The notes under the pieces were generated by a model. That model was not told the origin of the DNA. It searched no databases and was given only the letters and a program-made list of their open reading frames with translations. Below, piece by piece: positions 1-63,208 of a stretch of DNA of 63,208 nucleotides. A program made the translations under genes and the position numbers. Position 1 is the first letter of the stretch. Every line of letters begins with the position of its first letter. Source of the DNA: a virus. The stretch covers positions 1 through 63,208 of the IMG/VR virus record IMGVR_UViG_3300016457_001358; one strand, given 5' to 3'.

Positions 1-936
1 AAGAGGATAACTGTTCCAGACGATTTATTAAGACAGGACTTGGGAGACATAAACTCGCTGGTGGAATCCATAAAACGGTGCGGCCTCGACAACCCCATAA
101 CAATCCAGCAGGTCGGCGACAAGATAATATTGCGGAAGGGAAGGCGCAGGCTGGAGGCGTTCAGGCGCATGCGAAAGTCCAAAATACCATACAAGCTTGA
201 GAGTGAGACCAAGAGCGACGAGAGCAGATTAATAGTCCTTATGAAGCAGGCCGCCGAGAACAGGGCGAGGAAGGACTTCACGCCGGCGGAGGATTTGCGG
301 GCGGTTCTGGAATTGACGAAAGAGGCGGTCGAATACATCGACAATGACAGCGATGCGGGGGCATACATCGTGAACCTGCACATGAAATTGTGGAAAAAGG
401 AAAAACTGTATTCAGACGAAAAGAAACTTGTGGACATCCTCAAAGGGGCTGGATACTCGAATTTCAACTTCCTGTCAAAGCTCATGAGACTGCGAAAGCT
501 CAGTAAAAATATCCTCGAAAGGGTTGAATACGGAAACAGCAACACGATTAACGATATTTTTGAAAAGAAGAAAATCTCCTTCGGCCACGCGATAGAGCTG
601 TCGACCCTGAAAGCCGAGAAGCAGGAGATGATGTTCGAGAGAATATTCAAGGAAAAGATGAAAATCGTGCAATTGAGAAAGGAAATCAAAAAAGAAAAGC
701 ACGGGAATGAAAAGCACAAGGTGTGTGGCGCTCGCGGGTATCGCCCGCGGAGAAGCGGGTTAAAGATATTGGAGGAGCAGATGAAGAAAAAGCAGGAGGC
801 GAAAAAAGAGAAAGACGAGAATGAGGATGCAGAAAAAATCATTTTCAGCGAAGGGACGGTGGTCATCTGCCCGCATTGTCTTGAAACTTTCGAGCTCGAT
901 GCCTTCGAGCAGCACGAGTTAAAGGTGAGGGGATGA
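1..936 (+). CDS. ParB-like partition/nuclease-domain protein with C-terminal zinc ribbon; 5' end lies at 63082 across the circular junction
   Basis: ParB box motifs GLDNPITIQQVGDKIILRKGRRRLEAFRRM; C-terminal CPHC..H; frame continuous with 63082..63208. Confidence 0.65.
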   Translation, partial: KRITVPDDLLRQDLGDINSLVESIKRCGLDNPITIQQVGDKIILRKGRRRLEAFRRMRKSKIPYKLESETKSDESRLIVLMKQAAENRARKDFTPAEDLRAVLELTKEAVEYIDNDSDAGAYIVNLHMKLWKKEKLYSDEKKLVDILKGAGYSNFNFLSKLMRLRKLSKNILERVEYGNSNTINDIFEKKKISFGHAIELSTLKAEKQEMMFERIFKEKMKIVQLRKEIKKEKHGNEKHKVCGARGYRPRRSGLKILEEQMKKKQEAKKEKDENEDAEKIIFSEGTVVICPHCLETFELDAFEQHELKVRG

Positions 937-9718: not shown

Positions 9719-9725
9719 AAAGAAA

Positions 9726-10164: not shown

Positions 10165-10184
10165 GATGCTGAAGGCGAGAGAAA

Positions 10185-11607: not shown

Positions 11608-13449
11608 TTAATGCGTATGACCAGCATCTACCGGGCTATGCTGATGACTTGCGGCATTGCCTTCGAGGGCTGGCGATACTTCCGACTCTGATGGGCTATG
11701 CTGATGACTTGCGGCATTGCCTTCGAGATTTGGCGCATTCGGAGTAGCAGACACATTAGCACTAGCATCTTCAGCTGTATTTGTATCAATATCGTGTGTA
11801 TGTCCCGTACTCCACCATGTTTTCAGATGATAGTTAAAGTCAGCGGTTCCTGTTCCGGTATATCTACATCTTAAATACAAAGTTTCTCCTTCGCTAGGTT
11901 TCATTGAAGATATTTCTTTCCAAATTGCTGTTGTACCCATATTGTCAAGGAATATCTTTCTAGTACCCAGTCCATAAGAGTAACTTTCAAGCTTGTATTC
12001 AAAATATTCAGGAGATGGGCATGAAGTAATAACAATCTCTACTTCGTGTACCAGTATTGTACTTCTTCTTTTTTGGTTTTCAGAATAACCGGATGTATCA
12101 ACAGTATAGCTCGCGATATCTGTCCAGTCACTTCCTAAACCTGAATATGATCCATCTGATGTGTGGTTAGTGTCAGTCATCCATGAATCTCCTTTTATAT
12201 TTGTCGTCGTTGCTGATACTGTATGGCTATGGGTAGATGTATAGGATGAATGATCGTGACTTGCGGCATTGCCTTCGAGGGCTGGTGATACTTCCGACTC
12301 TGATGGGCTATGCTGATGACTTGCGGCATTGCCTTCGAGGGCTGGCGCTATATCTGATTCCGATACATCGGCAGTCCCGGTGTCGGTTCCGTGTTTGTAG
12401 CTTCCCAAATCCTGTAACTGCTCCTCGTTTCTCGCCAACTTGTCCAAGAATGTCGTTACTCTGTTCGATAGCTCCAGCTCCAGCCTGTTGGGTTTGGTCG
12501 CGTTCAAAATCACCCTCTTTTTGACTATTTTATATTCACCCGACATGCCGCTTCTCGTATCGTTGACCGTCACATCGTCGCCGACCGAAAATGTATAATC
12601 CGTTTCGACCGGCAATATGGAGATTCTGTAAAAAGGCTTTGGCGTGCCGTCCGGATATGTTCCCTCGTATCCGCTGTAAGTATCCAAAATCTGGTCGGCG
12701 AGCCTTTGGGCCGATGTCACATCGGCGATCGTCCTGTCTATGAATATCGCTTCCTTGGTGATCCCGTAATAACTTTGCGAATCGGTATTCTCTCTCCAGC
12801 CGGAATCGATTTGCTGCGTTCCGTCGCCCATGCCCAGCACCTTCACCTTGTTTATCAATGCTTCTCTATCCACCATTTTTTTGATATCCCAGCAGTTTGC
12901 AAGGCTGCCTCCCGTGTTGAATGTGGCTTGAGACGTGTCGTTTCCCACTCTTTCGGCTATATTGAACTGGTCGTTGTCGCTGGCGTCTTGATTCACTTTC
13001 CATTCGTAACCTATTTGCCTCGCCAGCTTAGCCAGTCCCAGCAACCTGGATTCATGGACGCTGAAATCGACATTCCCGTAGTTCGTGTTCGTTCCGACAT
13101 TGATTACTCCGCTGCACAGATCGGATACTATGGTGCTCGTTGCCGTGGCGGACCACGATCCATCGTAGGTTTTTTCGAGCAATTTGACGCTCATATCGTA
13201 GCCGTAGCATTTGACGATGCCGGTATCGCTGTACTGGGGCTTCTCCAGCCTGCCTTTGAACACGGTCGTCGAATTGAGCTGAAATTTAACTATATTGCCC
13301 GCTTGAACATTTGGATCGTCGTGATCTATGTCAAACAGTTCCAGCTCAAATGTGAAAGGTTCGTTGAGCTTCTCCGTGAACTCGGCTTTCAAGTAGTTAT
13401 CCGAATAGTCAACGCCGTTTATCAACAATGTCCATGTCAATTTGATCAC
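11608..13449 (-). CDS. tail/baseplate-associated protein with internal peptide repeats
   Basis: 613 aa downstream of tape-measure-like gene; four copies of PALEGNAASHQHSP from 60-nt tandem repeats. Confidence 0.5.
   Translation of the reverse strand: MIKLTWTLLINGVDYSDNYLKAEFTEKLNEPFTFELELFDIDHDDPNVQAGNIVKFQLNSTTVFKGRLEKPQYSDTGIVKCYGYDMSVKLLEKTYDGSWSATATSTIVSDLCSGVINVGTNTNYGNVDFSVHESRLLGLAKLARQIGYEWKVNQDASDNDQFNIAERVGNDTSQATFNTGGSLANCWDIKKMVDREALINKVKVLGMGDGTQQIDSGWRENTDSQSYYGITKEAIFIDRTIADVTSAQRLADQILDTYSGYEGTYPDGTPKPFYRISILPVETDYTFSVGDDVTVNDTRSGMSGEYKIVKKRVILNATKPNRLELELSNRVTTFLDKLARNEEQLQDLGSYKHGTDTGTADVSESDIAPALEGNAASHQHSPSESEVSPALEGNAASHDHSSYTSTHSHTVSATTTNIKGDSWMTDTNHTSDGSYSGLGSDWTDIASYTVDTSGYSENQKRRSTILVHEVEIVITSCPSPEYFEYKLESYSYGLGTRKIFLDNMGTTAIWKEISSMKPSEGETLYLRCRYTGTGTADFNYHLKTWWSTGHTHDIDTNTAEDASANVSATPNAPNLEGNAASHQHSPSESEVSPALEGNAASHQHSPVDAGHTH
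11633..11727. repeat. 60-nt tandem coding repeat, two units
   Basis: gggctatgctgatgacttgcggcattgccttcgag repeated. Confidence 0.8.
12250..12350. repeat. second pair of the same ~60-nt coding repeat
   Basis: gacttgcggcattgccttcgagggctgg occurs twice. Confidence 0.8.
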
Positions 13450-24843: not shown

Positions 24844-26010
24844 TTACTCATCAGCTACTACGAGCCGGACAATTGCGTCTGGATGAACCGCCTTGGCCTC
24901 GTATGCGAGACTGAGTTTCATTCTTATTTGGTCTGCGTTAGGCCAGTCAAACACTTTGACCGTTGCTTGTCGTCCCCAAACTATCGCTCCGCACTTCTTT
25001 GCTTTTACCAGTCCGCAAATGTGACCGTTAACATCGGTGCTGACATTTGCTCCCTGTACTCTTATTACGCCCGCATTCGAAAATGCTGGAACTTTTGAGG
25101 TACAGACCACTTTAACTCCCAGGTATTGCCCTATTTCTCCATGCAATACCACTTCATCTGAACCGTATTCCGACGCATTGACGAACTGAGAATCGTCTTG
25201 CAATGCTTGTCTTTGCTCAGGCGCTATGAACAAAACAAACGGTTCGTCTGGCGTTGGTTCCCAAGCATTTTTGGTTACCGCTGATTTGGTGAATGTGTTG
25301 CTGCTCCAATAGTAACCGATATTGGAAGTCAGCAATCTGATCGCTTTCGAAATCATGCTCGTTGTCAGAATATCGCCTGCATCCAAAGAGTCGTCTGCAT
25401 TCGTTGCGTCTCCGCCGAATATTGTTTGCGCGCCGTTCACGGTATTGCTCATTGGCGTTGGTTCGGATGCGTCTTCTCCGCTCGCATCCGTTTTAAATGT
25501 TCCGAGCAATGCGTCTCTGATCGCGCTGTCGACGGAGTTTTCGTATTTGTAAGATAACTCCTCTCTACAGTATGTCACTTGATCCAGCGCATTGGTCATT
25601 ATTGCTTTGTTGGAAATTGCGACGCCGTAGTTGTAGTATGTTGGCGTGAACTGAACCGAATCGGCGGTGTCTATTTGCGTCCATGAAATCTCGCTGCCCG
25701 CCGAGTATTCTTCTGAACTCGATTCCCAGCTTGAATCAGCCAGGTATTTCTTTCTTTTAGCCATGAAGTAGTCTTTTGCTCTCTCTGCTAACTGAACCTG
25801 AGTAACCACGTCCAAGAATCTTAATCTCTCTCTCGCAGCATCAACGGCCTTTTTGGCATAAATCGCCGGAGTAAGACCGTAGATGTTGGTTCCCGCGCTA
25901 CCCTGAACGCTGGATACAGTAGTTACTGTGCTTGACAGTTCGAATGTCTTGAAGCCAAGTTTATCCATTCGCGGTACCATCGACAATTTATATGTTATTC
26001 CATTTTCCAT
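24844..26010 (-). CDS. putative major capsid protein
   Basis: 388 aa directly after scaffold-like gene in terminase-portal-scaffold order; no motif verified. Confidence 0.5.
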   Translation of the reverse strand: MENGITYKLSMVPRMDKLGFKTFELSSTVTTVSSVQGSAGTNIYGLTPAIYAKKAVDAARERLRFLDVVTQVQLAERAKDYFMAKRKKYLADSSWESSSEEYSAGSEISWTQIDTADSVQFTPTYYNYGVAISNKAIMTNALDQVTYCREELSYKYENSVDSAIRDALLGTFKTDASGEDASEPTPMSNTVNGAQTIFGGDATNADDSLDAGDILTTSMISKAIRLLTSNIGYYWSSNTFTKSAVTKNAWEPTPDEPFVLFIAPEQRQALQDDSQFVNASEYGSDEVVLHGEIGQYLGVKVVCTSKVPAFSNAGVIRVQGANVSTDVNGHICGLVKAKKCGAIVWGRQATVKVFDWPNADQIRMKLSLAYEAKAVHPDAIVRLVVADE

Positions 26011-27267: not shown

Positions 27268-30200
27268 TCAAATGAGTTTGAGAATCTTTTGATACCGATA
27301 CACGGTGTTTTTTGACAGTCCAGTCGCCAGACTGATGCTTCTTCTGGATTCGTTTTTTGCCGTGAGCTCGATTATCTGCTTCAATATTTTGCCCGTAACC
27401 TTCACGGGCTGACCGGCTTTTTTGATTTTGTCGAAAAGCATGATCCACGTTTGAGGCCCGATGTGCGCGATGTGGAATGAATACTCGCCCGTCATATCGA
27501 TCAGCTTCTTTGGCGGTTTAACCAGCACTGGAGCTCCCTCTTTTTTCGCCATTTGCAAAGGCTTCAGGTTAACATCGCCCTTGTCCGATCTGAACTCTAT
27601 TCTTATTTTGTGATCGGTCACTTCGTGGATGGTGTACACGCCTCTGGAAATTATGATAAAGACCCCGGGATAGCGCGTTTTAGCCGTGCCGATCTTATGC
27701 GTGACCCCGTCGAAGAACAGCCAGTCCACCGGCTCCGTCAGCTTGATCGTTCCTCTGACATGCGAACTGTCGGCATAGTTCGATTCTTCCACCGTTGCGG
27801 GAGTGAACAGCGTTATCCCTTCGAGGCAACCCTTGAGTTTGCCTTTTTTGAACAATGCCAGCGCGTCATCGTAGGTCAAGACTTTGCAAGTTACTTCGTC
27901 GGGAACAAACAACCTGACATCCCGGTGCGTTTTTCGCCCTATGCTGTGCAGGTGGATGACATAAGGCATCCACAGATTGTTGTTCATGATTTTTTTGAAA
28001 TTTCTCTGCATTCTCTCCGGGAAGTCCCTGATTATTTTGACTTCTTTGGCTTCCTCCGGCTCTTTTTTCAACTCTTCGTGCTTCACCGCAACGCCGATCG
28101 CGGTGACTATGTCCTCGAGTTCGTCTATTGTCGAAGTTTCCTTTTTTTCCGTAATATGATTGACCCTTGGCTTGTGAATCGAGTACCACCTGCCTTTGTC
28201 CGATTCGTGCCTCCAAACCTCTTCGACCAAAATGCTCAGTATGGCTCCCTCTTCGTATTTTTCGGATGTGTTGAACGTTTTGCCGAGAACCAGCACCTTT
28301 TTTCCTTTGAAATCGGTTATCTTGTCGGGGTTGATGCCGGCGTCCTTTTCCCTCAGATAGACTCCCACGAGATAGTTGTAAAGATTCTTTTCCTTGGGAA
28401 TTCGGTCCAGTATCACCACATCTATATCGACGAGGTTGCGAAATTTCAGCCACGACTTATGCTCTCCGAAATGATACTTTGCCGACAGGTCTTTGATCAC
28501 GGCCCCTTCCGAGTAAGGCAGATTCTTTGCCCACTCTATCGCCTTTCTGACTTCATCGACCCCTTTCGCAAACTTTCTCTGAATGAGCAAGGTTCTGGGA
28601 CCGAAGTTCAATTTATTCAAATATTTGATGCGCTCGTGTAAGCTCAGGTTCGTGATATCATTATCGAAGTAAACGATGTCCCATATAAATATCTTAATGT
28701 TTTTGTCGTCCACCTTTTTTCCGCTTTCGATCGCTCCTATGAATTTCATCAATGTGTTTCTTCCGAGCTGCTTGCCGTCGTCGAAAGGAACTATCTCGCC
28801 GTCCACTATGAAATTAGCATCGCTCATCTTCGATATCGCATCGCACAGAGTCGGAAACGCAAACGTCAGCTCTTTTTTTTGCTCTGAAAATATCTTCACT
28901 TCGCTTCCCTTTTTGTGGCAGCACACGTGAAATCCGTTTATCTTTTTCTCTACGGAGTATTCGATATCATTCCTGATCTTTGCCATTATGTCATCGATTT
29001 TGTAATAAGCCGAGCCCAGCGGTTTTTGAGGAAGATAAGGCTCGAACAGCCGAACCGAATCTCCGAGAATTATTTCGTTCATTTCCACTATTTTGGTCGG
29101 TTTGATGCGCTCCAGTTTCAAATCGTAAAGCGGAATGAATGAGTCGTGGCTGCCCTCCGCATCTCCCCATATCATGTGAATCTTCGGTATCAACTCGGCG
29201 TAGCCGTTTTCTTCGAGCATTTTCAGCAGCCTGACTTCGATCGCCCTTCTTATATACGAGTTCTTCTCCGCTCGCAATCTGATTTGCAAGTCCACATCGT
29301 TCGGTATGTGACCCTTTGGTCTTTTCACGGTAGAACCGACCAGAGAAATGCAGTCCTTGACTATTTTGAAGTCCTTGAATGCGTCCAGAAAATCGAGATT
29401 CGTCAAATCAACTTTCTTGTGTATCATCTCCTTTTCTCCGGTTATTCGCTTATACAGATCCAATGACCATTTCTTGTAGGTTTCCGGGTGAAACTCAATG
29501 CCCCTTTTCTTGAGCTCCTCGTATATCATTTTGGCGAGATTGACGAGAGTTTCTTCCGAATACGGTGTTTTCTCTCCTCTTTTCAGCTTGCTGTAATGGG
29601 CGCACACCAGTCTGTAATCGTCCTTCAAAACATCCGTGCTCAACTTTTTGGGATCATACGTCTCCGGGTTCTGTATCAAATTCGCTTCGACGTTCTGGAA
29701 CTCAAATTTTTCCAACACGCTTTCGATTTTTTCGGCGAGCGAATCCCACCAGCTTTCCCAACCTTTCTCGCCGTACCACACTTTGCCCGCAACGACCACT
29801 CTTGGTCTGTTCTCGGCGCCGATGTCGCATTTGGAATACAAGCCGTCCTGCTTGTCCAGCTCTTTGCTGATATCTTCGGCTTTGTCATCGTCGGCCGGGT
29901 TCGCCATCCTGAACACTATGAAGGCGACCCTCTCGGGCGACTTTCCCTCGTCGCTCGCCCTTATCTCTATCTCCTTGATCCCGTTCAGTTGCTCGAGCCA
30001 CTCGTCCTTTATATGAACATCGATATCGTTGAAACCGTTCCACGACTTCTTCGGACCGTCCGTGCGGCCGCTCAACCAGCCTCCCGGCGGCAATTTGTTG
30101 TATACCGCGTAGTATGCGAATGTGGGCGAATTCATTTTCGGCGTGTAATCCGCATTCAAAAATTCGATATCCTTCACGAATGTTTGCGTGCCTTTTTTAA

Positions 30201-32106
30201 ACTTCCACCTTCGCGGAGCTGAAAACTTCGTGATCCATTCAAACGAGAATTCGTAAAAATGCTTTTTGTCTTTCCATCCCCATTTTTCAATCTCGCTCTC
30301 GCTGATCAAATGAAGATTCGCCCTCTCGTCGAACTGCTTTTTCGTGATTTTGTTTGGCGCATGAAGCCTGATAACGCCGTAAACAAACTCTTTGTCCACG
30401 ACATAAAGAGCTTTGTCCACCATCTCGGGATAAGGTCTCGTCTTTATTATCAGCGATTTTTTTCCGCCCCATAACCATCTGGCGTGAGGCGACGGCAAAT
30501 AAATTCCCTCTCTCTGCTCGAACAGTTGCAACTCCACCAACTTCTGACTCGCGTCAATTGAATCGGGATCGTAGTTGCTGAATACCAGCTCGTATTCGGG
30601 CTTGTCGTTCTTGGCGAAGGTTCTTTTGTGGAGCATCTTTTTCATGTAAAAATCTTTGAACAAATCCCTTATCCAGTCGGCATCATTCAATGTTAAAAGA
30701 AACTTTCCCTTCACCGATTTCAAAATGTCGCGGAGCTCCCGCAGGTTTTCTTTCGTGAATTTCAAACCGTTTTTTTCGAACTTCCACTCGTCGGGATAAG
30801 GGGGATCGACAAAGAAAAACGTCTGCGAGGAGTCGAACCTCTTTATGATCGATTTGTAGTCCTGGTTGTATATCTTCACGCCCTTCAATCTGTTCCTCAG
30901 CGCGTCCCATCTGTTCAAAATCCCGAGCAACTTTTCTTTGTTGAACCAGCCGTATGTTTCTCTGTCTATTCCGTAAGAGTATCTCGTGAGATACAAAAAT
31001 TTGGCGAATCTCTCGGCATCGTTCTTCGGCTTCAATTCTTTGATCCTGAAAAAAGTCGGTTTGTCGTTTTTCCATGCGTATTGCCTGAGCCTTTGGGCAT
31101 CTTCGGCGCTCGTGCTTTGTATGAATTTGTACGCGAACGCGATCTCTGGATCGAGATCGTTTAAAACCTCGATTTCGCTCGGGCTCTTTCTCCAGAACAC
31201 CGCAGCTCCGCCGGCGAACGGCTCGCAGTAAATTTTGTGCTGTGGCATCATCTTGATCAATTTTTCCGCGACCCTGCTCTTGCCGCCCGGGCTGCCGAAC
31301 GCCTGTTGCATGAGTTCATGATCTTTGTATAGCACCATGCCGTCGTAAGACAAAATGATTTCGCTGCTCGATTTCCCCTTTATCTGGTTCCAGTATCGCC
31401 GAATCTGTTTTTCGGCCTCGTGATGGTCGGGATACGAGCGCCCCGCTTGTATCAGCACGAATTTGTCTGGATTGTATGCTTGAGCGTATGCCAGCGAATT
31501 GGCGACATTCAGATGCCCTCTCAACATCTTGCCCGTGGCAACTATCTCGCCTCCCCTTTCTTCCAAATTGTAAATGGCCGCATCCAGAATCATTATGTCC
31601 GCGTTTTTGAGATAGCGCTCGTTTTCTGCGGGGACCGATTCCATGTCCTCGGCATAAACCAAGCCGTCGATCCTGTACCCGTAGCAGGGAAATTTCTTGC
31701 CGGTCGGAAACGCCTCCGCGTGAATCACCCTGAAAGGAATTATCTTGAATCCCATTATTTCGTTCGTCTGGCGAGGAGTTATCGGTTTGAGAACGATGTT
31801 TTTGAACTTCTTTTGTAGCCTTTCGTTCGCCAGCACATCCGGGGGAGCGTAAACGTTTATGGGCTCGGTCAGCCACTTGTCCAGATCGGGCAGACCGCCA
31901 ATGCAGTCGGCGTGAGCGTGCGTCAGCAGGCAGAAGTCTATTTTCTCGATGCCGTTCTTCTCCGCTTGCTCCCTGAAGTGCTTGGTGACATCGATTATGA
32001 AGGATTTTCCGCCCTTTTCTACATAGATGGAGCTATTGGTGCGCCTGTTTTTTCCTCTTCCTTCAACTAACTGAGTCGGACCCGAGCCCAGCACAACTAT
32101 TTTCAT
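27268..32106 (-). CDS. giant multi-domain (polyvalent-type) virion-module protein: MBL-fold hydrolase + Dam-like N6-adenine MTase + ligase-like nucleotidyltransferase
   Basis: LLTHAHADCIGG; GGKSRVAEKL..YCEPFAGGAAVF..FFFVDPPYPDEW; EKKINGFHV..FIVDGEIV..SWLKFRN; likely start MKIVVLGSG at 32106. Confidence 0.75.
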   Translation of the reverse strand: MKIVVLGSGPTQLVEGRGKNRRTNSSIYVEKGGKSFIIDVTKHFREQAEKNGIEKIDFCLLTHAHADCIGGLPDLDKWLTEPINVYAPPDVLANERLQKKFKNIVLKPITPRQTNEIMGFKIIPFRVIHAEAFPTGKKFPCYGYRIDGLVYAEDMESVPAENERYLKNADIMILDAAIYNLEERGGEIVATGKMLRGHLNVANSLAYAQAYNPDKFVLIQAGRSYPDHHEAEKQIRRYWNQIKGKSSSEIILSYDGMVLYKDHELMQQAFGSPGGKSRVAEKLIKMMPQHKIYCEPFAGGAAVFWRKSPSEIEVLNDLDPEIAFAYKFIQSTSAEDAQRLRQYAWKNDKPTFFRIKELKPKNDAERFAKFLYLTRYSYGIDRETYGWFNKEKLLGILNRWDALRNRLKGVKIYNQDYKSIIKRFDSSQTFFFVDPPYPDEWKFEKNGLKFTKENLRELRDILKSVKGKFLLTLNDADWIRDLFKDFYMKKMLHKRTFAKNDKPEYELVFSNYDPDSIDASQKLVELQLFEQREGIYLPSPHARWLWGGKKSLIIKTRPYPEMVDKALYVVDKEFVYGVIRLHAPNKITKKQFDERANLHLISESEIEKWGWKDKKHFYEFSFEWITKFSAPRRWKFKKGTQTFVKDIEFLNADYTPKMNSPTFAYYAVYNKLPPGGWLSGRTDGPKKSWNGFNDIDVHIKDEWLEQLNGIKEIEIRASDEGKSPERVAFIVFRMANPADDDKAEDISKELDKQDGLYSKCDIGAENRPRVVVAGKVWYGEKGWESWWDSLAEKIESVLEKFEFQNVEANLIQNPETYDPKKLSTDVLKDDYRLVCAHYSKLKRGEKTPYSEETLVNLAKMIYEELKKRGIEFHPETYKKWSLDLYKRITGEKEMIHKKVDLTNLDFLDAFKDFKIVKDCISLVGSTVKRPKGHIPNDVDLQIRLRAEKNSYIRRAIEVRLLKMLEENGYAELIPKIHMIWGDAEGSHDSFIPLYDLKLERIKPTKIVEMNEIILGDSVRLFEPYLPQKPLGSAYYKIDDIMAKIRNDIEYSVEKKINGFHVCCHKKGSEVKIFSEQKKELTFAFPTLCDAISKMSDANFIVDGEIVPFDDGKQLGRNTLMKFIGAIESGKKVDDKNIKIFIWDIVYFDNDITNLSLHERIKYLNKLNFGPRTLLIQRKFAKGVDEVRKAIEWAKNLPYSEGAVIKDLSAKYHFGEHKSWLKFRNLVDIDVVILDRIPKEKNLYNYLVGVYLREKDAGINPDKITDFKGKKVLVLGKTFNTSEKYEEGAILSILVEEVWRHESDKGRWYSIHKPRVNHITEKKETSTIDELEDIVTAIGVAVKHEELKKEPEEAKEVKIIRDFPERMQRNFKKIMNNNLWMPYVIHLHSIGRKTHRDVRLFVPDEVTCKVLTYDDALALFKKGKLKGCLEGITLFTPATVEESNYADSSHVRGTIKLTEPVDWLFFDGVTHKIGTAKTRYPGVFIIISRGVYTIHEVTDHKIRIEFRSDKGDVNLKPLQMAKKEGAPVLVKPPKKLIDMTGEYSFHIAHIGPQTWIMLFDKIKKAGQPVKVTGKILKQIIELTAKNESRRSISLATGLSKNTVYRYQKILKLI

Positions 32107-33380
32107 TCGCGATCTCCATGAATTTTGGGCATGCCCTCTATCTCCCTGATGTAATCCTCGGTTTCCGGATTGGGAGTTATCAAACCATGCTTCGCGCATC
32201 TCGCTATTCTCTCCATCTTCGAATCGAGCTCCTCCAGAGAAATCTCCCCCCACTGTATTTTCACGGGCGGAACGCGGTTAACCTGGGAAATCCTTCTTAT
32301 CACTTTGGATTCGAGAACTCCCACCGTTCTCTCTATTATGTCCTTGAGCCTTATCTTGAAAATGTACTCCTGCCTGTTGAGAGTGGATCGGTTGGTCGTT
32401 TCTCCGAGCCCCGTCGCGAACGCTTTGGGTATGCCCATGCCGGTGATCATGACATCCATCCAGTAGTCGAGAAAGTTTCTTATTTTGGCGGACTGCCTCG
32501 ATTCCAGCAGACCGATCTTCAACCAGCTGGGATGGGAGAACGCGGTCAGGCTGTTGATGTCCTTCAGCTGCTCCGCAACCTTGGTTATCTGCTCCGGCGT
32601 GGCATCGTGAGTTTCGTCGCCCACCGACGCGTCGATCAGCGGAAAGCCGACCCTGTAGCTGGCGTTGGCGAAACCGTCCTCGACCGCCAGCTGCCTGAGA
32701 TACGACTTGTAAATCGGCTCGATCAATCCGATTCCGTAGAAGCCGTCCCCGACCTCGTACAGCTTGAAATGGGCGACCCTTTCCGGTGGCAGAAATATCT
32801 TGTTGCCCTGCAAAGAAACCTGGGGCGGGGGAGCGATTTTGTTGTTCACCCTTTCCATCGACGGAACCGACTGCGTGTATCCGACCGGGTTCCCGTAATC
32901 ATCCAGAGCGATTCTGTCCGAGCTGTCCTTCGCGTAGTCGAACCTTTTCGGATCTATGATGTCCAGATCGACTATCGCGCTCTTTTTCAAGCTCCCCTTC
33001 TCGATCGTGCCGTAGATTATCTCCCAAGGGCAGAACCCGTAGATGAACTGGTACTGAAATGTTTTTGTGAGAATGTTCCGCCAGTTCGTTTCTCCGCCCG
33101 TGTATCCGACATTGTCGAAAAACTCCGAAAAGTATTCGACGGCCTCTTTGCTGCCCTTCAAAGAGTACCCGGCGCTCATGATGATCTGGGTCAGCACGTT
33201 GATCGAGTTGTGTATTATTCCGTTTTTCGTGTAGCATTGCTCGAGCTCCTTCAGCTGGCCGGGAACCATCCTTTCCAATTCCGGCGTCGCTTTCTTGGCG
33301 ACGGGGACCGGCGAAATCTTCGAAACGGCCGAAGCCAGATTGAAGGACCTTCTGCCTCCGAACAAATCCGACAGCAGCAT
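32103..33380 (-). CDS. putative portal protein
   Basis: 425 aa immediately downstream of terminase large subunit; position and size only. Confidence 0.5.
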   Translation of the reverse strand: MLLSDLFGGRRSFNLASAVSKISPVPVAKKATPELERMVPGQLKELEQCYTKNGIIHNSINVLTQIIMSAGYSLKGSKEAVEYFSEFFDNVGYTGGETNWRNILTKTFQYQFIYGFCPWEIIYGTIEKGSLKKSAIVDLDIIDPKRFDYAKDSSDRIALDDYGNPVGYTQSVPSMERVNNKIAPPPQVSLQGNKIFLPPERVAHFKLYEVGDGFYGIGLIEPIYKSYLRQLAVEDGFANASYRVGFPLIDASVGDETHDATPEQITKVAEQLKDINSLTAFSHPSWLKIGLLESRQSAKIRNFLDYWMDVMITGMGIPKAFATGLGETTNRSTLNRQEYIFKIRLKDIIERTVGVLESKVIRRISQVNRVPPVKIQWGEISLEELDSKMERIARCAKHGLITPNPETEDYIREIEGMPKIHGDRE

Positions 33381-33628: not shown

Positions 33629-35149
33629 TTATAATATTATCGCTTTAGTATTTAAAGTTTTGTTTTCGATCGCTTTAGTGTTTAAAGTTTTGTCTTCGGG
33701 CTTGCTCTCCCTCTTGGTCCCGATCAACAGATCGCCCTTGGCATGCACCTTCACGGGAACTGCGCTGACGGCTAAAGCGAGCGCCATCACCATGTCGTCG
33801 TGGGCCGCGCTCGACTGGTAGCTCGTGATTCCCGACTGGGTCTTGACCTTTCTCATCGCCGTGAGCTCCTTGTAGAGCTCGTCCGTCAAATGCTCCGCGC
33901 GCGAGCCGGGCTTGTGAGGAAATATGATCTTCCTCTCCTCTATTATCCTCCTCAGGTTCATGAGATAGTTGATTCTCCTCTTGTAATCGAACCTGCAGCC
34001 GACGGCCCGAAGCCCCTGCATCCTCAGATCCTGTATGAAGTTCGACCCGAACAGGCTCTCGTCGATGAGAACCGCCTTCGGATGAAACGTTTCGCTCAAC
34101 TTTATCAGCTCCTTTCTCTGAATCGGGATTGCAACCCCCCTCATCCTCACGATCCTCCTCACCACGGCCGCCGCGCCCACATTGTCAACGACGACGAAAA
34201 CCGTGTAGTCGGCATCCTTGCCGGTCGAGTACGCCAGGTCGCAGCCGATGTAGCACGCCCCCTCCACATTGTCCGAGAAATCTATTTTGTCGTCCCAGCA
34301 GTTCAGCACCATGTTCGGGGGGAACAGCGCGTCCTCGACCGCGAGCGTATCCACCATGTACTCCCTGTCGAACTTTATGCTCCCCATCGATTCCCTTATT
34401 TCGGCAAGCCTTTCCGGGGGATAAAGCTCGGGAAATATCGACTCCCCGTACTTCATTCTCTTGTAAATCGGGCTGTCGAACCCCTTCCTCCCCTCGTACT
34501 TCCTGCTCTTCATCGCGGGATAGAACCGCGTGACGAACTGCTTGTTCTCCAGAAGCTTGTGGGGGATGTCGGTCTCCGATTCCGGCGTCGTTATTCCCAC
34601 GAGCTTGCCCCTCTCCGCCGTGACCCTGGTCAAAACATACCTGAAAAAGATGTCGTGGTTCGCGTAAGACGCCAGCTCGTCCGCCACGACGTAGTTCAAG
34701 TGAAACCCCTTTATGCTCTCCGTGTAAGGCCGGCAAAACAGCCTCGATCCGTTCGCCGTCTCGATCTTGGTCTTAGTCCACGTGACCTTGAGCCTCTCCT
34801 CGGGCTCAAGCTCCCTCAGCAGCTCGTTCTTCAGTATCATGTCCTTGTTTCTCTCGAGCAGCTTGGTCGCGTGCTCCATGATCTTCGATATGACCAGAAC
34901 CTCGGACCCCGGCTTGTAGTACAGTATCCACAGCGGAATCCCGACCCCGAATATGCACGTCTTTCCGAAGCCCGTCGGCGCAACTATGCAAACCCTGTCG
35001 TGCCTGCGCCACAGATCTATCCACTCCCTGTGGCACGGCTTGATGTGCCAGCCAAACACCCTCTCTATCCAGAATGCGGGATCCTTTTTGCCGCGCAGAT
35101 AAAACGCGTCGATGCTATCCCCCTTCAGTATTTGCTCCATCGTCCTCAT
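33629..35149 (-). CDS. terminase large subunit
   Basis: Walker A IVAPTGFGKT, Walker B YVVADE, C-terminal nuclease-like IGCDLAYSTGKDADYTVFVVVD. Confidence 0.85.
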   Translation of the reverse strand: MRTMEQILKGDSIDAFYLRGKKDPAFWIERVFGWHIKPCHREWIDLWRRHDRVCIVAPTGFGKTCIFGVGIPLWILYYKPGSEVLVISKIMEHATKLLERNKDMILKNELLRELEPEERLKVTWTKTKIETANGSRLFCRPYTESIKGFHLNYVVADELASYANHDIFFRYVLTRVTAERGKLVGITTPESETDIPHKLLENKQFVTRFYPAMKSRKYEGRKGFDSPIYKRMKYGESIFPELYPPERLAEIRESMGSIKFDREYMVDTLAVEDALFPPNMVLNCWDDKIDFSDNVEGACYIGCDLAYSTGKDADYTVFVVVDNVGAAAVVRRIVRMRGVAIPIQRKELIKLSETFHPKAVLIDESLFGSNFIQDLRMQGLRAVGCRFDYKRRINYLMNLRRIIEERKIIFPHKPGSRAEHLTDELYKELTAMRKVKTQSGITSYQSSAAHDDMVMALALAVSAVPVKVHAKGDLLIGTKRESKPEDKTLNTKAIENKTLNTKAIIL

Positions 35150-35429: not shown

Positions 35430-36174
35430 ACTATAAAAATACGCTCAAAAATATAAAAACCTTGCGATGACACACCAGCGCCCAAAATGTCTTACTCTAC
35501 AGATACCGCTAAGGCAGTTCATTAAGATTACGGTAAGGAAGAACGCTTCGGTGCGGATTCGACATTCTCCCATCCCGCATGTCAGAGATATCCATTTTAC
35601 TTATGTTATTTGAATTCATAAGGAAGCGCTCAATTTCCAACAGACGCACAAAGTTGGATGTGCGAGGCCGATACCGGCAATTTTATCTCATTCACCGCCG
35701 CTTACCATCGATTCACAAAGCGGGCGGCAGTTTTGTAAAATCCTTGCGAGCTCAATCTCATTTTTTGCCCGGTCCCGTTGCAACAGCTCATCATCAGCAT
35801 CTCGCCAGTACAGCAAACAAATATTCGCGCGGGGATAAATGCGGTCGCTTTGGTAGCAAATGCGATATTTATGCAATATTGTTTTACAAACAGCAAATAT
35901 GCTATTCAGAACTAACGGATGCAATATCTATTTTGTAGGATATATGTTTTCGACTGTAAAATTTTGGGGAAAATAGCGAGGGCTGGCACTATACCCATTT
36001 ATCAAAAAATTTCTCGTGAATCCAAAATTCCGATATACAAATGCTTATATTACTATTGTGGCATATAAAACCAGATATAGATTATATTATAACAATACAG
36101 ACATATAAAATAGAAATTGCGACATAAAAATAAGAAAATGAAAAATAAAGAATATAAAAAAGAAAATAAAAAAA

Positions 36175-36894
36175 TCAAATATACATTTTTGCTAATGCTT
36201 GTATTTTCTGCATATCAATATGCTTTATTGTTGTTTGTGTTCTGTTTCTGTTTGTTTGTGTTTTCTGTTGTTTCTGATAAACAAATTTGTATATGTAAAA
36301 TATCTTTTGTCTCTGTAATTTCGCTATCTTCTCTCTCATCCATGCTAATAATATTTTTCTTCTTCTCTCATATTCTCTGTATTCTGTTATGCTCATATTC
36401 ATTTCTTTTGCTTCTGTGTGTTCTGTTATTCTTCTATGCTTCATTATTATGTTTCTAATATCAAAGAGATAATTGCTATTCAATTCATCGATCAATTTTT
36501 TTATTTCTCTGTTTATTCTGTTTATTCTTGATATTCTTGATTTGTAATTGTATATTGTTCTTATGTCATTATTTTTCTTCATTTCTTTTATTGTCGCATT
36601 TATTTGCTTGATTCTATGTAATGCTAATGTATAAATTCTGTCTGATGTTGTTGTTTTTTTTGCGATTTTTTGGCATTCTCGTCTTTCTTTCAATAATTGA
36701 TAATATTTGTTGTTTTGCTCTAAATCTCTTAATAATGTTGCTCTTATGTCTATGATTTCTTTATATTTTTCTGTTATCTCTATTATTCTTTTTGCTATTA
36801 ATAAATTTCTGTAATCTCTTGACATTCCATATCTGTTTTTTGCTGTTTCTTTTATTTCTCCAATTAACTCCTGATATGTTGCCATATTCATCAA
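36175..36894 (-). CDS. hypothetical K/R/I/N-rich protein in AT-rich island
   Basis: 239 aa; purine-rich coding strand; composition unlike the rest of the replicon. Confidence 0.3.
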   Translation of the reverse strand: MMNMATYQELIGEIKETAKNRYGMSRDYRNLLIAKRIIEITEKYKEIIDIRATLLRDLEQNNKYYQLLKERRECQKIAKKTTTSDRIYTLALHRIKQINATIKEMKKNNDIRTIYNYKSRISRINRINREIKKLIDELNSNYLFDIRNIIMKHRRITEHTEAKEMNMSITEYREYERRRKILLAWMREKIAKLQRQKIFYIYKFVYQKQQKTQTNRNRTQTTIKHIDMQKIQALAKMYI

Positions 36895-37140
36895 ATATTA
36901 TTATGCATTATGTATATAAAAAGATTATTGCCATTCTTTTATCATTATATAATATAAGCATCCAAAAATCTTAATTTGTTTCTCCAAAATATAAATTCTA
37001 ATCGCCAAATTGTAAAATATGAGATCAAATCGCTATTTATGATGGACCTGATTATAATCGCTATGATGCAACAAATATATTGATGAATATAATTGATGTA
37101 TGCTATTTTTACAATATATATAGAAACAATAAAAAGAGTG

Positions 37141-37350
37141 ATGCAAATGGACATAAACAAATTAATAGAACAAGCAAAGAATACAAGCACAAAAAGAGTC
37201 TCAAAAGATAAATATTTGTGCTTGTATTGGAATAAAGAGAAAGAACCCGAAAACTACAGAGTTGTGAAAGAATTCATGAAAAAACATGATTTGACACCCA
37301 CAGAATTGAAATTATTCCTTATTCAGATAATAAAGAGTAAAAACAATTGA
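37141..37350 (+). CDS. hypothetical small protein
   Basis: ATG at 37141 in frame 37093..37350. Confidence 0.3.
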   Translation: MQMDINKLIEQAKNTSTKRVSKDKYLCLYWNKEKEPENYRVVKEFMKKHDLTPTELKLFLIQIIKSKNN

Positions 37351-37359
37351 TTGCGGGTT

Positions 37360-37450
37360 CTTTCTTTTTGATTTGTTTGTTTTTGCTTTTTTTTATATTC
37401 TTTTATTTTTACTGTTTTAAAAGCGTTTAAAGGTTTTTAAGGGTGCTTGT
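37360..37450. promoter_or_regulatory. AT-rich upstream repeat, copy 1 of 3
   Basis: ttttaaaagcgtttaaaggtttttaagggt recurs at ~37735 and ~38050, each before a small ORF. Confidence 0.4.
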
Positions 37451-37684
37451 ATGAAGGAGAAAATTGAATGGAAAGAGTTTGAAATCGCGGGTAGCAAGTT
37501 CTATGCGGCAGTTGTGGGTATGGCGGTCATCGGAAACGAAACTCAAGTCATCGTTAGCGATGAAATTCATGCCATCAAGGGGGTCGCTTTTATACACGCC
37601 GACGGCAGCTTCACTTGGTTGAACCCGCCAGACAACTTCAAAGCCGATGTTGAAAAGAAGTTGCTCGAGTTGTATCCGCGATAG
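37451..37684 (+). CDS. hypothetical small protein
   Basis: 77 aa ORF behind repeat copy 1. Confidence 0.35.
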   Translation: MKEKIEWKEFEIAGSKFYAAVVGMAVIGNETQVIVSDEIHAIKGVAFIHADGSFTWLNPPDNFKADVEKKLLELYPR

Positions 37685-37799
37685 GATCTCTTTTTAATTT
37701 ATTTGTTTTTATTTATATTTTTTTATATTCATCATTTTAAAAGCGGTTTTTAAATGGGTCGTATATCGTTCATTTTAAATCTTTAAAAGTGTTGAAAAA

Positions 37800-37922
37800 T
37801 GACAAAAGAAACAAAATTCTTGGTAAGAGTGAATACAGGAGATACAAAGGTAGTATCTGAAAAAGAGATTGAAGAACTCGCTAAAAGCATTGAGTATAGT
37901 GTACTGGATGTCTATTTTTAGA
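37800..37922 (+). CDS. hypothetical small protein
   Basis: ~40 aa ORF behind repeat copy 2. Confidence 0.25.
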
Positions 37923-37952
37923 GTGGTTTAAGGATCGGACCCTTACCACTCT
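37918..37952. repeat. conserved hairpin after cassette ORF
   Basis: agagtggtttaaggatcggacccttaccactct; near-identical copy at 38268..38300. Confidence 0.5.
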
Positions 37953-38087
37953 CTGGGTGGGTCATACGGGTGGGGAGTTGATTACTAGAAGCGGTCAATT
38001 CCGCTTTAATTTTATTTTTATATTTTTATTTATATTTTTATATTTCTATTTTTAAACGATTTTAAATGGGTCACATAGGTGAATTAA

Positions 38088-50845: not shown

Positions 50846-51046
50846 ATGGGTCAAGCAGACGTTTTGAAGATAGTGAAAAAGCATCCGGACAAGTGGTTTA
50901 GCGTGAGCGCGTTGGCAAACGCGCTCGGCGTTTCGCCGGCCAGGATCAAGATATGGGTCACCAAACTTTACAGGCATTGGGACCTGATCGAGGTCAGGCG
51001 GGACAGAGCGGTTCCAGAAACATTCGTAAAATACAAGCAAAAATGA
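50846..51046 (+). CDS. winged-helix DNA-binding protein
   Basis: MGQADVLKIVKKHPDKWFSVSALANALGVSPARIK; paralogue of 5465..5683. Confidence 0.45.
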   Translation: MGQADVLKIVKKHPDKWFSVSALANALGVSPARIKIWVTKLYRHWDLIEVRRDRAVPETFVKYKQK

Positions 51047-51052: not shown

Positions 51053-51241
51053 ATGGTTGGAGAATTTTTGAAAGTCAGGTGCAAAGCGTGCAAAAACGAG
51101 CAAATAATCTTTGGGAGAGCCACTTCGGTGGTCAGATGCCTCGTTTGCGGAAACATTCTGGCGGTCCCGACGGGAGGAAAATGCAAAATTATTTCCGCCA
51201 GGCTGAAAAAGGTTATTCCGAACGATGATGATGCTTCTTGA
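51053..51241 (+). CDS. ribosomal protein S27e (eS27) homologue
   Basis: [42 protein letters not shown] matches the eS27 C4 zinc-finger signature. Confidence 0.7.
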
Positions 51242-51265
51242 TTGTAAATCAGATACATTTATCTA

Positions 51266-51345
51266 ACAGAATATATATGTTTCATCAAACAATTGGTGTA
51301 TACCATTCTTCTATATATAATGTAGAGAATTTGGCGATATGCTAT
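51266..51345. promoter_or_regulatory. conserved promoter/operator region, copy 2 (upstream of wHTH and P-loop genes)
   Basis: cagaatatatatgtttcatcaaacaattggtgtataccattcttctatatataatgtagagaatttggcgat. Confidence 0.5.
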
Positions 51346-51631
51346 GGAAACAGTAAAAGACTACATAAGCAGAGTGGCGCTGTTCAAAATAGCGGTTTAC
51401 CTTCATCGCAATCAAGGACGGCGCTTGAATATCACGACCATATCCAAGAGGTGCGATATAACATTCGCACACACGGTGAAAATGATAAGATTGATGCACG
51501 CGAACGGATTCGTAGTTATGGCAAGGCGTGGAAGGGAAGTGGCGGTGTTTCTGACCGACGATGGAAAGGAATTCGTGGAGTGCGTCGCAAATATGTTCAG
51601 GATTCTCAACATAGACTCGGAATCGGCGTGA
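51344..51631 (+). CDS. winged-helix transcription regulator
   Basis: 95 aa, wHTH-like core ISKRCDITFAHTVKMIRLMHANGFVVMARRGREV. Confidence 0.5.
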   Translation: METVKDYISRVALFKIAVYLHRNQGRRLNITTISKRCDITFAHTVKMIRLMHANGFVVMARRGREVAVFLTDDGKEFVECVANMFRILNIDSESA

Positions 51632-54491: not shown

Positions 54492-54563
54492 AGGCGGTTG
54501 GTGAAATCAGGCATCATAATAGGCTCATAACCTATTGTTTCGGTTCAAATCCGAAACCGCCTA
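54492..54563 (+). tRNA. tRNA with anticodon CAU (Met or Ile2)
   Basis: Hand-folded cloverleaf: 7-bp acceptor aggcggt/accgcct, D-loop with GG, anticodon loop cuCAUaa, T-arm ttcgg-ttcaaat-ccgaa; no encoded CCA. Confidence 0.55.
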
Positions 54564-55187: not shown

Positions 55188-55478
55188 GTGAGTAAGAGCA
55201 GGACTATAGTTTTCCAAATGACAGGACTTCAATTAGCCGGCATTTGGCTAAAGGCACGGATAGCTGGCATCCAACTCAATGAAGCTATCGTCTGTGAGTT
55301 TGCTGATTTGATTCGAAAAAGAACAAATGCTGAAAGAATAATTCCAAAAATTTCCGGTGTCTCTCAACTCATAGCAGAAACCATTGTTGGGGCGAACTTA
55401 GACGAATATTTCGTAAGCAATCCAGCCAGATATATGCGGATAGATGTGCGACCTCCTCGTCGGAAAAATGAATGGTGA
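55188..55478 (+). CDS. hypothetical protein
   Basis: 96 aa ORF, GTG start. Confidence 0.35.
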   Translation: MSKSRTIVFQMTGLQLAGIWLKARIAGIQLNEAIVCEFADLIRKRTNAERIIPKISGVSQLIAETIVGANLDEYFVSNPARYMRIDVRPPRRKNEW

Positions 55479-55484
55479 AAGAAA

Positions 55485-55676
55485 ATGAAGAAAATTAAAT
55501 CCGGACTCGAAAAACATTTCAAAATTGAGACTTGGGTCGAGAAAAATCAATATGGCTATCTGATAAAGCAAAAACATGAATCAGAAGATTACCCCAATCT
55601 TTTCGTGGAAGAAACAGTCATTCTAACTCCGAGAGTCATTAAAAAACTAAAAGTGAAAGAAAATGATAGGAGATGA
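55485..55676 (+). CDS. hypothetical protein
   Basis: 63 aa ORF preceded by ggtgaaagaaaatg. Confidence 0.35.
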   Translation: MKKIKSGLEKHFKIETWVEKNQYGYLIKQKHESEDYPNLFVEETVILTPRVIKKLKVKENDRR

Positions 55677-55740
55677 CCCTTTGATAAGAGATTGGATAGA
55701 GAAGATAAACGAAACCACAGGAAATTAAAGGCGATGAAGA

Positions 55741-55956
55741 ATGGAATTCAGCTTAAACCTTGCTTGTATTTTAGAAAAGATGGGAAACGAATTTGATGAG
55801 ACATTAGAAGATTTGGGAGTAGGGTGGAGAAAAGTTGCAGAGATGATAGTTAAAGGAGAGATGGAGTTAAGAATAAAATCTACTCCGATTGGAGATTATC
55901 TTGTGATAGAAGTTCCAGATAAGTTTATTAATGCTCAAAGTGAAAGAAATGAATGA
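55741..55956 (+). CDS. hypothetical protein
   Basis: 71 aa ORF. Confidence 0.3.
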   Translation: MEFSLNLACILEKMGNEFDETLEDLGVGWRKVAEMIVKGEMELRIKSTPIGDYLVIEVPDKFINAQSERNE

Positions 55957-56206
55957 ACCAAAGCCTCTTAGTTTGGATAAAGAGAGTCCATATCCAGAGG
56001 ATATATTTCCAGAAATAACAAAAGAGGAATGGGAGAGAATAGATAAACTGCTGAAAAAGGAGATGGGCTTTTCACTCGACAGAGTTGCTGGAAACATAAA
56101 CAGAAAGATGTGGAATAATATGAAGGAATGGTTTACGGAACGCATCAAATCCGCAGTCCAGGGATTGAAACAGGATATCGAAAAGAGGAAAGGAGATAAC
56201 TGCTGA
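55931..56206 (+). CDS. hypothetical protein
   Basis: 91 aa ORF. Confidence 0.3.
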   Translation: MLKVKEMNEPKPLSLDKESPYPEDIFPEITKEEWERIDKLLKKEMGFSLDRVAGNINRKMWNNMKEWFTERIKSAVQGLKQDIEKRKGDNC

Positions 56207-56290
56207 TGAAGGCAAAAGATACACATACGATTATTGTATTCATTTAATCAAAAAATGGTTTCCTGATGCTCTTGGAGACGGTGAAAAGCC

Positions 56291-56476
56291 ATGAATTTAG
56301 ATAAAATTGTCGAAATCTGTTTTCTCATAGGGTTTCTCAGTCTTCTGTTATTCGTTGTCGGGGGCATCGCTTTCGTTCCAGACGCTGACGGTCCTTTCAT
56401 TCTGCTTATTCATTTTTGTAACAGCAGTCGTTATAGTGCTGATGATTTTCATCACCGCTACGAATTGAGATGCTGA
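56291..56476 (+). CDS. small membrane protein, diverged paralogue of 9988..10164 (3' end in a different frame; possibly decayed)
   Basis: N-terminal MNLDKIVEICFLIGFLSLLLFVVGG nearly identical to first copy. Confidence 0.3.
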   Translation: MNLDKIVEICFLIGFLSLLLFVVGGIAFVPDADGPFILLIHFCNSSRYSADDFHHRYELRC

Positions 56477-56488
56477 AGGTGAAAAAAA

Positions 56489-56857
56489 ATGGAATGTAAA
56501 GCAAAATTCGATTCAAAAGAAATAAAGAACCAATTGGTGCTGGCTGCTGGAACATATAACGGAGAGCTATATTTTCCACCCGAAACAATCAAAAAAACAG
56601 TTTCACTTACAAAACGAATACCCGTTTATTTGAATTCCACACAAGACAACAAACATTTAGTAGGTGCGGCAACAAATTTCAGATTAAAAAATAACAAAAT
56701 GTATTGTGATGTAAAAATTGAACCTGAATATTTTGAATCATTTGCCTTAGATTTAAAAAACGGAGAATCTAACGGCGCAACAATAAAAAGGATTGAAATT
56801 GCAGGTTTAAGCATAATACCGAACAAAAAAGTAATTAAGAAAGAGCGAGCGAAATGA
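56489..56857 (+). CDS. hypothetical protein
   Basis: 122 aa ORF. Confidence 0.4.
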   Translation: MECKAKFDSKEIKNQLVLAAGTYNGELYFPPETIKKTVSLTKRIPVYLNSTQDNKHLVGAATNFRLKNNKMYCDVKIEPEYFESFALDLKNGESNGATIKRIEIAGLSIIPNKKVIKKERAK

Positions 56858-63081: not shown

Positions 63082-63208
63082 ATGAAAAAACTGAAACCTT
63101 TCGGCGAAATCGAAATCAAGAGGATAACTGTTCCAGACGATTTATTAAGACAGGACTTGGGAGACATAAACTCGCTGGTGGAATCCATAAAACGGTGCGG
63201 CCTCGACA
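63082..63208 (+). CDS. 5' portion of the ParB-like gene (continues at position 1)
   Basis: ATG at 63082 followed by MKKLKPFGEIEIKRITVPDDLLRQDLGDINSLVESIKRCGLD in frame with 40..936. Confidence 0.6.
   Translation, partial: MKKLKPFGEIEIKRITVPDDLLRQDLGDINSLVESIKRCGLD
63118..63208. repeat. terminal redundancy: identical to 1..91 (circular closure)
   Basis: 91/91 nt identity with the window start. Confidence 0.9.

Follow-up and report, generated by a model that had tools for sequence, protein, structure and literature searches.

The window analysed here is the whole 63,208-nucleotide stretch of IMG/VR virus record IMGVR_UViG_3300016457_001358 (positions 1 to 63,208). It is the complete genome of a tailed archaeal virus, and its plus strand carries a 62-codon gene for a homolog of ribosomal protein eS27 (S27e), a protein specific to archaea and eukaryotes. 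The gene and an alternative reading of its start lie as follows:

51053..51241 (+): viral eS27/S27e gene, 62 aa, with a C4 zinc ribbon (C10, C13, C29, C32) and a derived acidic tail, NDDDAS
51068..51241 (+): alternative TTG-start reading, 57 aa, found in public gene calls and judged less likely than the ATG at 51053

The viral eS27 and the genome that encodes it

A sequence-only reading had assigned this open reading frame (ORF) to eS27, and all of the motifs in question are found (FLKVRC-x2-C-x-NEQIIF, ATSVVRC-x2-CG and PTGGK). The assignment is borne out by profile searches, with the Pfam family Ribosomal_S27e (PF01667) matching residues 3-47 at 66.9 bits (gathering score 24.5, E=1.3e-18) and the NCBIfam equivalog NF001629 PRK00415 (30S ribosomal protein S27e) scoring 77.2 bits against a cut-off of 70. 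The possibility that the best matches would be generic zinc ribbons did not materialize, as such families reach just 11-16 bits, under their own thresholds, and the family-specific blocks F-x-x-V-x-C, N-E-Q and P-T-G-G-K are present. A search of PDB sequences gave eS27 chains for almost all of the best 58 matches, the archaeal ones first (E~1e-13). When aligned with 36 diverse S27e proteins, the viral protein retains all seven invariant columns (C10, C13, Q17, C29, C32, G41, G42) and all five near-invariant ones (F5, N15, F20, P39, K43). Its two CxxC pairs, about 15 residues apart, are C10/C13 and C29/C32 and correspond to the invariant cysteine columns. The ORF is a true eS27/S27e homolog.

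The protein is predicted to fold as a normal C4 zinc ribbon. Its AlphaFold model has a mean predicted local distance difference test score (pLDDT) of 85.2 and superimposes on ribosome-bound archaeal eS27 from 70S and 30S structures with a root-mean-square deviation (rmsd) of 0.8 Å and a template modelling (TM) score of 0.80-0.81. All of the top 50 Foldseek matches to this model are eS27, in keeping with the all-beta fold of the family.

With regard to the start codon, the public protein P0001 begins at LKVRC, that is, from the TTG at 51068. The ATG at 51053 is preferred because it is conserved in a diverged relative (contig L003, described below), because the near-invariant residue F5 is then included, and because the resulting N-terminus, M-x-G-x-F-L-K-V, matches that of several cellular S27e proteins. 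A truncation of the viral N-terminus was considered and ruled out, since the short 4-residue N-terminus is common to the cellular loci L004, L024 and L063 as well as to several cluster representatives.

The C-terminus is virus-specific: one residue is inserted, RLKKV replaces [RK][IV]LEVLE, and there is an acidic DDD tail, which is the low-confidence part of the AlphaFold model. The net charge of the protein is +6, compared to +13 in its closest cellular homolog (L004). Such a combination, with the rRNA-binding core conserved and the C-terminal strand, tail and charge altered, would also suit an inhibitor that competes with host eS27 for rRNA, or for a site on the L44e-S27e-aIF2alpha mRNA, and so stalls ribosome biogenesis or initiation-factor synthesis to bring about host shut-off. 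Many ribosomal proteins autoregulate their own operons, which is in favor of such an inhibitor, but we know of no autoregulatory site for archaeal S27e. In a heterologous assay, ribosomes with phage bS21 showed almost no activity (Mizuno et al., 2019; PMC6375957), which could be read the same way. However, the virus depends on active host ribosomes to express its large set of structural genes, and no sequence feature separates a decoy from a protein that is productively incorporated. An inhibitory role is considered quite unlikely.

The sequence-only reading had also placed the gene in a mobile element, which can now be specified as a complete tailed-virus genome on the basis of the following features:

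1..91 (strand not applicable): direct terminal repeat, copy 1, identical to 63118..63208
24844..26010 (-): HK97-type major capsid protein (MCP), a hallmark gene identified by homology, with 33% identity to the Altiarchaeum virus MCP
32103..33380 (-): Mu-type portal protein, a hallmark gene identified by homology
33629..35149 (-): large terminase (TerL), a hallmark gene identified by homology
63118..63208 (strand not applicable): direct terminal repeat, copy 2, identical to 1..91

An exact direct terminal repeat is the usual signature of a complete viral genome that is circularly permuted or terminally redundant. As the ends of the window form such a repeat (91 bp, 100% identity), it represents one complete viral genome of approximately 63.1 kb. 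The PCNA of the window is also encoded on an independent public contig, 63,226 nt in length. The hallmark genes belong to a minus-strand block (11.6-35.1 kb) that also encodes neck and tail proteins, and the Altiarchaeum virus protein is the sole named relative of the capsid protein.

Ribosomal proteins S6e, L15, L15e and L30 attributed to archaeal proviruses (PMC13573593) could be errors at the boundary between provirus and host, and the viral S27e might in principle be an artefact of the same kind, either host DNA misassembled onto viral DNA or the host flank of a provirus. This explanation is extremely improbable. The terminal repeat bounds the window, and S27e is well inside it, 12 kb from the closer end, surrounded by ORFans seen in viruses only and with no cellular genes on either side. 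Cellular S27e loci are arranged differently, with L004, L024 and L063 having L44e or S3Ae upstream and aIF2alpha downstream, as expected. Furthermore, the viral arrangement recurs in independent assemblies, namely contigs L001 and L002 from a JGI metagenome, which are the same virus (99.8-100% identity), and the diverged L003.

In one of these cellular loci, the 248-kb contig L024, the otherwise conserved L44e-S27e-aIF2alpha operon is broken after S27e and before aIF2alpha by an inserted gene that runs in the opposite direction (6131-8053, -) and encodes a putative surface protein of 640 aa containing a poly-Gly tract.

Conservation, rarity and origin

Contig L003 is 15.8 kb in length, is binned in the NCBI metagenome-assembled genome (MAG) GCA_964610485.1 and represents a relative at ~84% DNA identity. 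Its gene order is that of the window: orf66, S27e, a winged-helix regulator (wHTH), an insertion, an ATPase, RNase HII and DUF7557. The S27e proteins of the two viruses are 85% identical overall and 90% identical in the core, and their substitutions fall only at positions which are also variable in cellular S27e. At the DNA level the S27e region has 93% identity, above the ~84% of the surrounding blocks, with frame and start codon intact in both viruses across a DNA difference of ~16%. The ratio of nonsynonymous to synonymous substitution rates (dN/dS) is 0.22 for the full-length gene and 0.15 for residues 1-55, where there are 6 nonsynonymous and 10 synonymous changes (Fisher p=4e-4), and neighboring genes range from 0.05 to 0.29. 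The GC content of S27e and that at its third codon positions (GC3) match those of neighboring viral genes. From the pattern of substitutions, the viral S27e appears to be kept under purifying selection.

S27e might also be a host gene gained by illegitimate recombination and having no role in the virus, as it is small and rare (about 3 protein clusters, about 9 contigs) and sits in an accessory ORFan region that is variable between relatives. However, a neutral passenger of this type is largely refuted by the selection data and is very unlikely. The intact frame, the elevated identity of the S27e region, the ameliorated composition and a divergence of at least 33% from all cellular copies point the same way. 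Selection, conservation in L003, the intact frame and the matched composition together argue against an assembly artefact also.

Genes for ribosomal proteins are uncommon in viruses, as had been remarked from the sequence alone, and S27e appears to be particularly so. No S27e was found in IMG/VR (2.9 million contigs, with the protein itself and family-level patterns), in INPHARED (50,697 GenBank phage and archaeal-virus genomes, by tblastn) or in PLSDB (72,556 plasmids, by tblastn), and no report of a virus-encoded S27e, archaeal viruses included, was found in the literature. S27 goes unmentioned in the reference survey of virus-encoded ribosomal proteins, which covers 14 of them (Mizuno et al., 2019; PMC6375957). 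A more recent survey of archaeal proviruses, from 2026, gives the four proteins mentioned above in five predicted proviruses, with S27e not among them (PMC13573593). A search of 5.8 billion proteins limited the viral group to three clusters, all other matches being cellular S27e with at most 74% identity over partial lengths. An exhaustive search of cluster representatives returned a compact S27e family of 238 clusters, none closer than about 60%.

The viral eS27 is ~62-67% identical to any cellular S27e, and in the core the identity is at most 67%, as against 90% between the two viruses. Because no cellular copy comes nearer than this, the capture of the gene is likely to be old. The best 80 loci among GTDB species genomes, a candidate set biased by the CKNEQIIF word pattern of the scan, are labelled Woesearchaeota, Nanoarchaeota, Aenigmatarchaeota, "uncultured archaeon" and "uncultured Methanosarcinales". 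The last of these labels, carried by "binchicken" third-party annotation (TPA) MAGs (L005, L013, L014, L027 and others), looks unreliable, as their S27e proteins are near-identical to those of Nanoarchaeota and Woesearchaeota and unlike the eS27 of Methanosarcina acetivorans (PDB 9o17).

The best cellular match is L004, with 67% core identity and the gene context S3Ae, S27e, aIF2alpha, uL16, the uL16 of which groups only with Aenigmatarchaeota. Aenigmatarchaeota were therefore considered as the donor lineage, but this was not upheld. When alignment columns were resampled, L004 was the nearest neighbor in 18% of replicates (L020 and L005 in 11% each), and its tetranucleotide correlation with the virus is r=0.05. 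The highest tetranucleotide correlations (r=0.66-0.75) are with loci of the Nanoarchaeota/Woesearchaeota type, where the S27e C-termini share the viral KISAR. From these similarities in sequence and composition, donor and host can be placed no more closely than among archaea of probable DPANN type. An archaeal host, which had also been proposed, is supported by PCNA, RNase HII, S27e and promoter elements of the TATA-box type, as well as by the nearest S27e relatives all being archaeal.

Gene neighborhood and other features of the genome

The viral S27e lies in a plus-strand block (38.8-60 kb) encoding an RNA ligase of the T4 Rnl1 type, a trio of amidoligase, glutamine amidotransferase (GATase) and ATP-grasp proteins, PCNA, many small ORFans, S27e, a winged-helix regulator, an ATPase, RNase HII, a transfer RNA (tRNA) and RNase H. 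The features around it are:

46234..46296 (+): promoter-like element, copy 1, upstream of PCNA; ~60 nt with two TATA-like boxes; putative start of the block
46377..47096 (+): PCNA (sliding clamp), which opens the block closed by S27e; PCNA_N, E=1.4e-10; at most 31% identical to cellular PCNAs
50846..51046 (+): 66-aa gene (orf66), conserved beside S27e in the relative L003 and 91% identical to the L003 copy
51257..51319 (+): promoter-like element, copy 2, 16 nt past the S27e stop; end of the S27e block and start of the next (wHTH, ATPase, RNase HII)
51344..51631 (+): winged-helix transcriptional regulator (wHTH), directly downstream and conserved beside S27e; by homology
54492..54563 (+): tRNA(CAU) with an A1:U72 pair; 55.1 bits; accessory, absent from L003 and so not conserved with S27e

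The promoter-like element of ~60 nt has exactly two copies in the genome, where none would be expected by chance, and both are at matching places in L003 (~2428-2488 and ~4766-4825). On this basis S27e would be the last gene of a block opening at the PCNA promoter element. As its ATG is just 6 nt past the stop codon of the 66-aa gene, translational coupling with this upstream gene is compatible with the arrangement. Within each genome the copies of the element co-vary: the two in the window both have GTATACCATTC, and the two in L003 both have GTAGGGTATTC. It would seem that they evolve in concert, or else together with a regulator, for which the adjacent winged-helix protein is one candidate.

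Such a setting raises the question of whether the zinc ribbon of the viral eS27 serves off the ribosome, as a nucleic-acid-binding or regulatory protein in genome replication or transcription. S27e closes the block opened by PCNA and adjoins two winged-helix-like genes, the ATPase and RNase HII, and its C-terminus departs from the cellular consensus. In archaea, the cellular cluster L44e-S27e-aIF2alpha-Nop10 is almost always contiguous with PCNA, PriS and Gins15, from which a link between S27e and DNA replication has been proposed, and both DNA binding and extra-ribosomal roles have been reported for eukaryotic S27 (Berthon et al., 2008; PMC2643942). However, all invariant and near-invariant residues are kept and the changes between the viruses are confined to positions that vary in cells, as constraint by rRNA and the ribosome predicts. 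Neither is a host supercluster preserved in the virus. The viral PCNA is in the same orientation as S27e but 4 kb away, with about a dozen ORFans between them, and is just ~31% identical to cellular PCNAs, which indicates that the arrangement is not a copied host cluster and rules out a recent co-capture of PCNA and S27e from the host, an origin that had been considered. In addition, the PCNA of L003 (2047-2390, corresponding to window 46367-47081) is reduced to a short ORF by an internal deletion of ~350 nt (window 46589-46943), and yet S27e, 4 kb further downstream, is intact. The two genes can therefore be separated in function. A role outside the ribosome is a possible but doubtful alternative.

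The cellular operon context L44e-S27e-aIF2alpha(-Nop10) was not encountered in the virus; this context is a property of the cellular ortholog and not of the protein family. No other translation genes were found among the block mates of S27e with Pfam and PHROGs.

The tRNA(CAU) had been put forward as fitting the same theme as S27e. The gene is real, but a joint translation module of the two is little supported because L003 keeps S27e in a region without the tRNA. In a structural alignment with Rfam, A1 is paired with U72 and the discriminator is A73, both of which are features of initiators in archaea and eukaryotes. Two G:C pairs are present in its anticodon stem, AUAGG/CCUAU, compared to the three (29-31:39-41) of an initiator, and there is also a U11:A24 pair. 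From its sequence the product could be initiator Met, elongator Met or Ile2. None of 48 cellular loci had a tRNA(CAU) for comparison.

Two further sets of genes may touch upon translation. The amidoligase trio (42132-44562, +) consists of adjacent genes for Amidoligase_2, a class-II glutamine amidotransferase and a RimK-like ATP-grasp protein. In bacteria, the acidic C-terminus of ribosomal protein bS6 is extended with glutamates by RimK, and it is pure speculation that the RimK-like protein is connected with the acidic DDD tail of the viral eS27. The Rnl1-family RNA ligase (39700-40746, +; PF09511, E=1.6e-23) resembles that of T4, in which Rnl1 repairs tRNAs cut by host anticodon nucleases. 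By analogy, it may be a second viral gene that protects the translation apparatus.

A number of other features of the genome were observed. An ORF of 1661 aa (27268-32253, -) combines a metallo-beta-lactamase fold, a D12-class (Dam) adenine methyltransferase and an ATP-dependent DNA ligase, and is unusual in its position within the head-morphogenesis module, where it has the portal gene on one side and the scaffold-like and capsid genes on the other; its product may be packaged in the virion. The 613-aa tail protein (Prophage_tail domain; ORF 11608-13449, -) has repeat units of ~60-99 nt at 11638-12408 (-), which encode histidine-rich repeats of the EGNAASHQHSPSESEVSPAL type. Where the structural and replication modules diverge onto opposite strands, there is an AT-rich region (35900-38300, 24-28% GC), and the cumulative GC skew has its minimum here. 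The region has T-rich repeats at a spacing of ~306-320 nt and an exact 25-nt repeat, the copies of which (37917 and 38265) are 348 nt apart, and is a candidate replication origin or divergent promoter region. A segment of ~1 kb with several small genes is duplicated at the two ends of the plus-strand gene sets (9228-10187 and 55464-56491; 83-94% identity; repeat families D3, D4, D6 and D9). Searching IMG/VR with TerL gave three partial relatives, none covering the S27e region, and no relatives of the virus were found there via the neighboring ATPase.

Proposed role and comparison with known systems

Taken with the fold, the retained residues and the selection described above, the reading that we favor, at a probability of roughly 55%, is that the viral eS27 is a functional copy which is built into the host 30S subunit, where it either replaces host eS27 or is used in addition to it. 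Phage-encoded bS21 and bL12 provide a precedent for such incorporation. S27e would have been captured long ago from an archaeal host, probably of the DPANN type, by an ancestor of these tailed viruses, and the gene would since have been kept under purifying selection. It would be expressed with replication and early genes as the last member of the block under the PCNA promoter, probably translationally coupled to the gene upstream, and its product would take the eS27 site on host 30S subunits made during infection. Occupancy of this site is to be expected, given the normal C4 fold and the retention of all family-invariant residues. The outcome might be that production of small subunits is sustained, or that ribosomes are customized for the virus via the derived C-terminus. 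Eukaryotic eS27 is among the proteins contacted by the hepatitis C virus (HCV) internal ribosome entry site (IRES) (PMC9932298), and it is modelled together with the core of the initiation factor eIF3 in 48S structures (8rg0_H, 6ybd_H), from which a modified eS27 could plausibly affect initiation. Manipulation of host translation, which the sequence-only reading had suggested, would be reasonable to suppose.

A number of points weigh against incorporation into the host ribosome. In yeast, eS27 joins the pre-40S particle early, in the nucleolus (PMC9932298); as an early-assembling protein it is not of the exchangeable type, and exchange into mature ribosomes is therefore doubtful. The neighbors of the viral S27e are replication and regulatory genes and not translation genes, and the tRNA(CAU), the sole other translation-related gene nearby, is not in the corresponding region of L003. 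Finally, the estimate of selection is one pairwise comparison, with 16 substitutions in the core.

A bolder version would make the viral eS27 a ribosome-remodelling factor on the face of the 30S subunit that carries the eIF3 and viral IRES contacts in eukaryotes, its tail biasing initiation to viral mRNAs; alternatively, the position of S27e at the end of the PCNA block may stem from a real coupling of eS27 to DNA replication, like that proposed from the archaeal supercluster. Remodelling or replication coupling of this kind is considered unlikely. If remodelling did occur, the viral eS27 would be an archaeal counterpart of phage bS21, and viral reprogramming of the ribosome in an ultra-small archaeon of the DPANN type would be without precedent.

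With just 62 residues, the viral eS27 is easy to synthesize and tag, and could be a practical probe of ribosome customization by archaeal viruses. It is also a natural test of the proposed link between archaeal S27e and DNA replication. Should the host be of the DPANN type, for which the signals of composition and similarity are weak, the virus would give a rare view of how cells with a minimal translation capacity are exploited.

Compared to cellular archaeal eS27 in ribosome structures (PDB 9e71_BY from Pyrobaculum, 9o17_AX from Methanosarcina and 7zhg_W from Pyrococcus), the viral protein is of the same family and of similar length, with the same C4 fold (0.8 Å) and invariant residues, and its short N-terminus is one that cellular copies share. 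It differs in being virus-encoded and outside the L44e-S27e-aIF2alpha-Nop10 operon, in having at most 67% core identity and in its derived C-terminus.

With the archaeal supercluster PCNA-PriS-Gins15/L44e-S27e-aIF2alpha-Nop10 (PMC2643942) the virus has in common that S27e and PCNA are in the same orientation and in one gene block. It is without L44e, aIF2alpha, Nop10, PriS and GINS, however, and its PCNA and S27e do not adjoin.

The S6e, L15, L15e and L30 genes from archaeal proviruses are similar to the viral S27e in that archaeal-type translation components are attributed to archaeal viruses. Those proteins were reported in a single sentence and from predicted integrated proviruses (PMC13573593), whereas the viral eS27 is encoded inside a genome bounded by terminal repeats and is conserved in a second, diverged virus.

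The known viral ribosomal proteins are mainly from bacteriophages and include bS21, bL12, bL9, bS6, uS9, uS15, bL31, bL33 and others; those enriched in viruses are loosely bound and exchangeable, and bS21 and bL12 encoded by phages evolve under purifying selection and become part of ribosomes (Mizuno et al., 2019; PMC6375957). Like these, the viral eS27 is small, captured from a host and carried by a tailed virus of modest genome size, and its entry into host ribosomes is presumed. It is encoded inside a bona fide viral genome, and it shows purifying selection, albeit in a single pairwise comparison with a small sample. The phage proteins are of the bacterial type and mostly loosely bound, in contrast to the viral eS27, which is specific to archaea and eukaryotes, binds zinc, assembles early in yeast and is found, with signs of long-term selection, in a complete archaeal virus genome. 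In these respects the viral eS27 extends the known class of virus-encoded ribosomal proteins.

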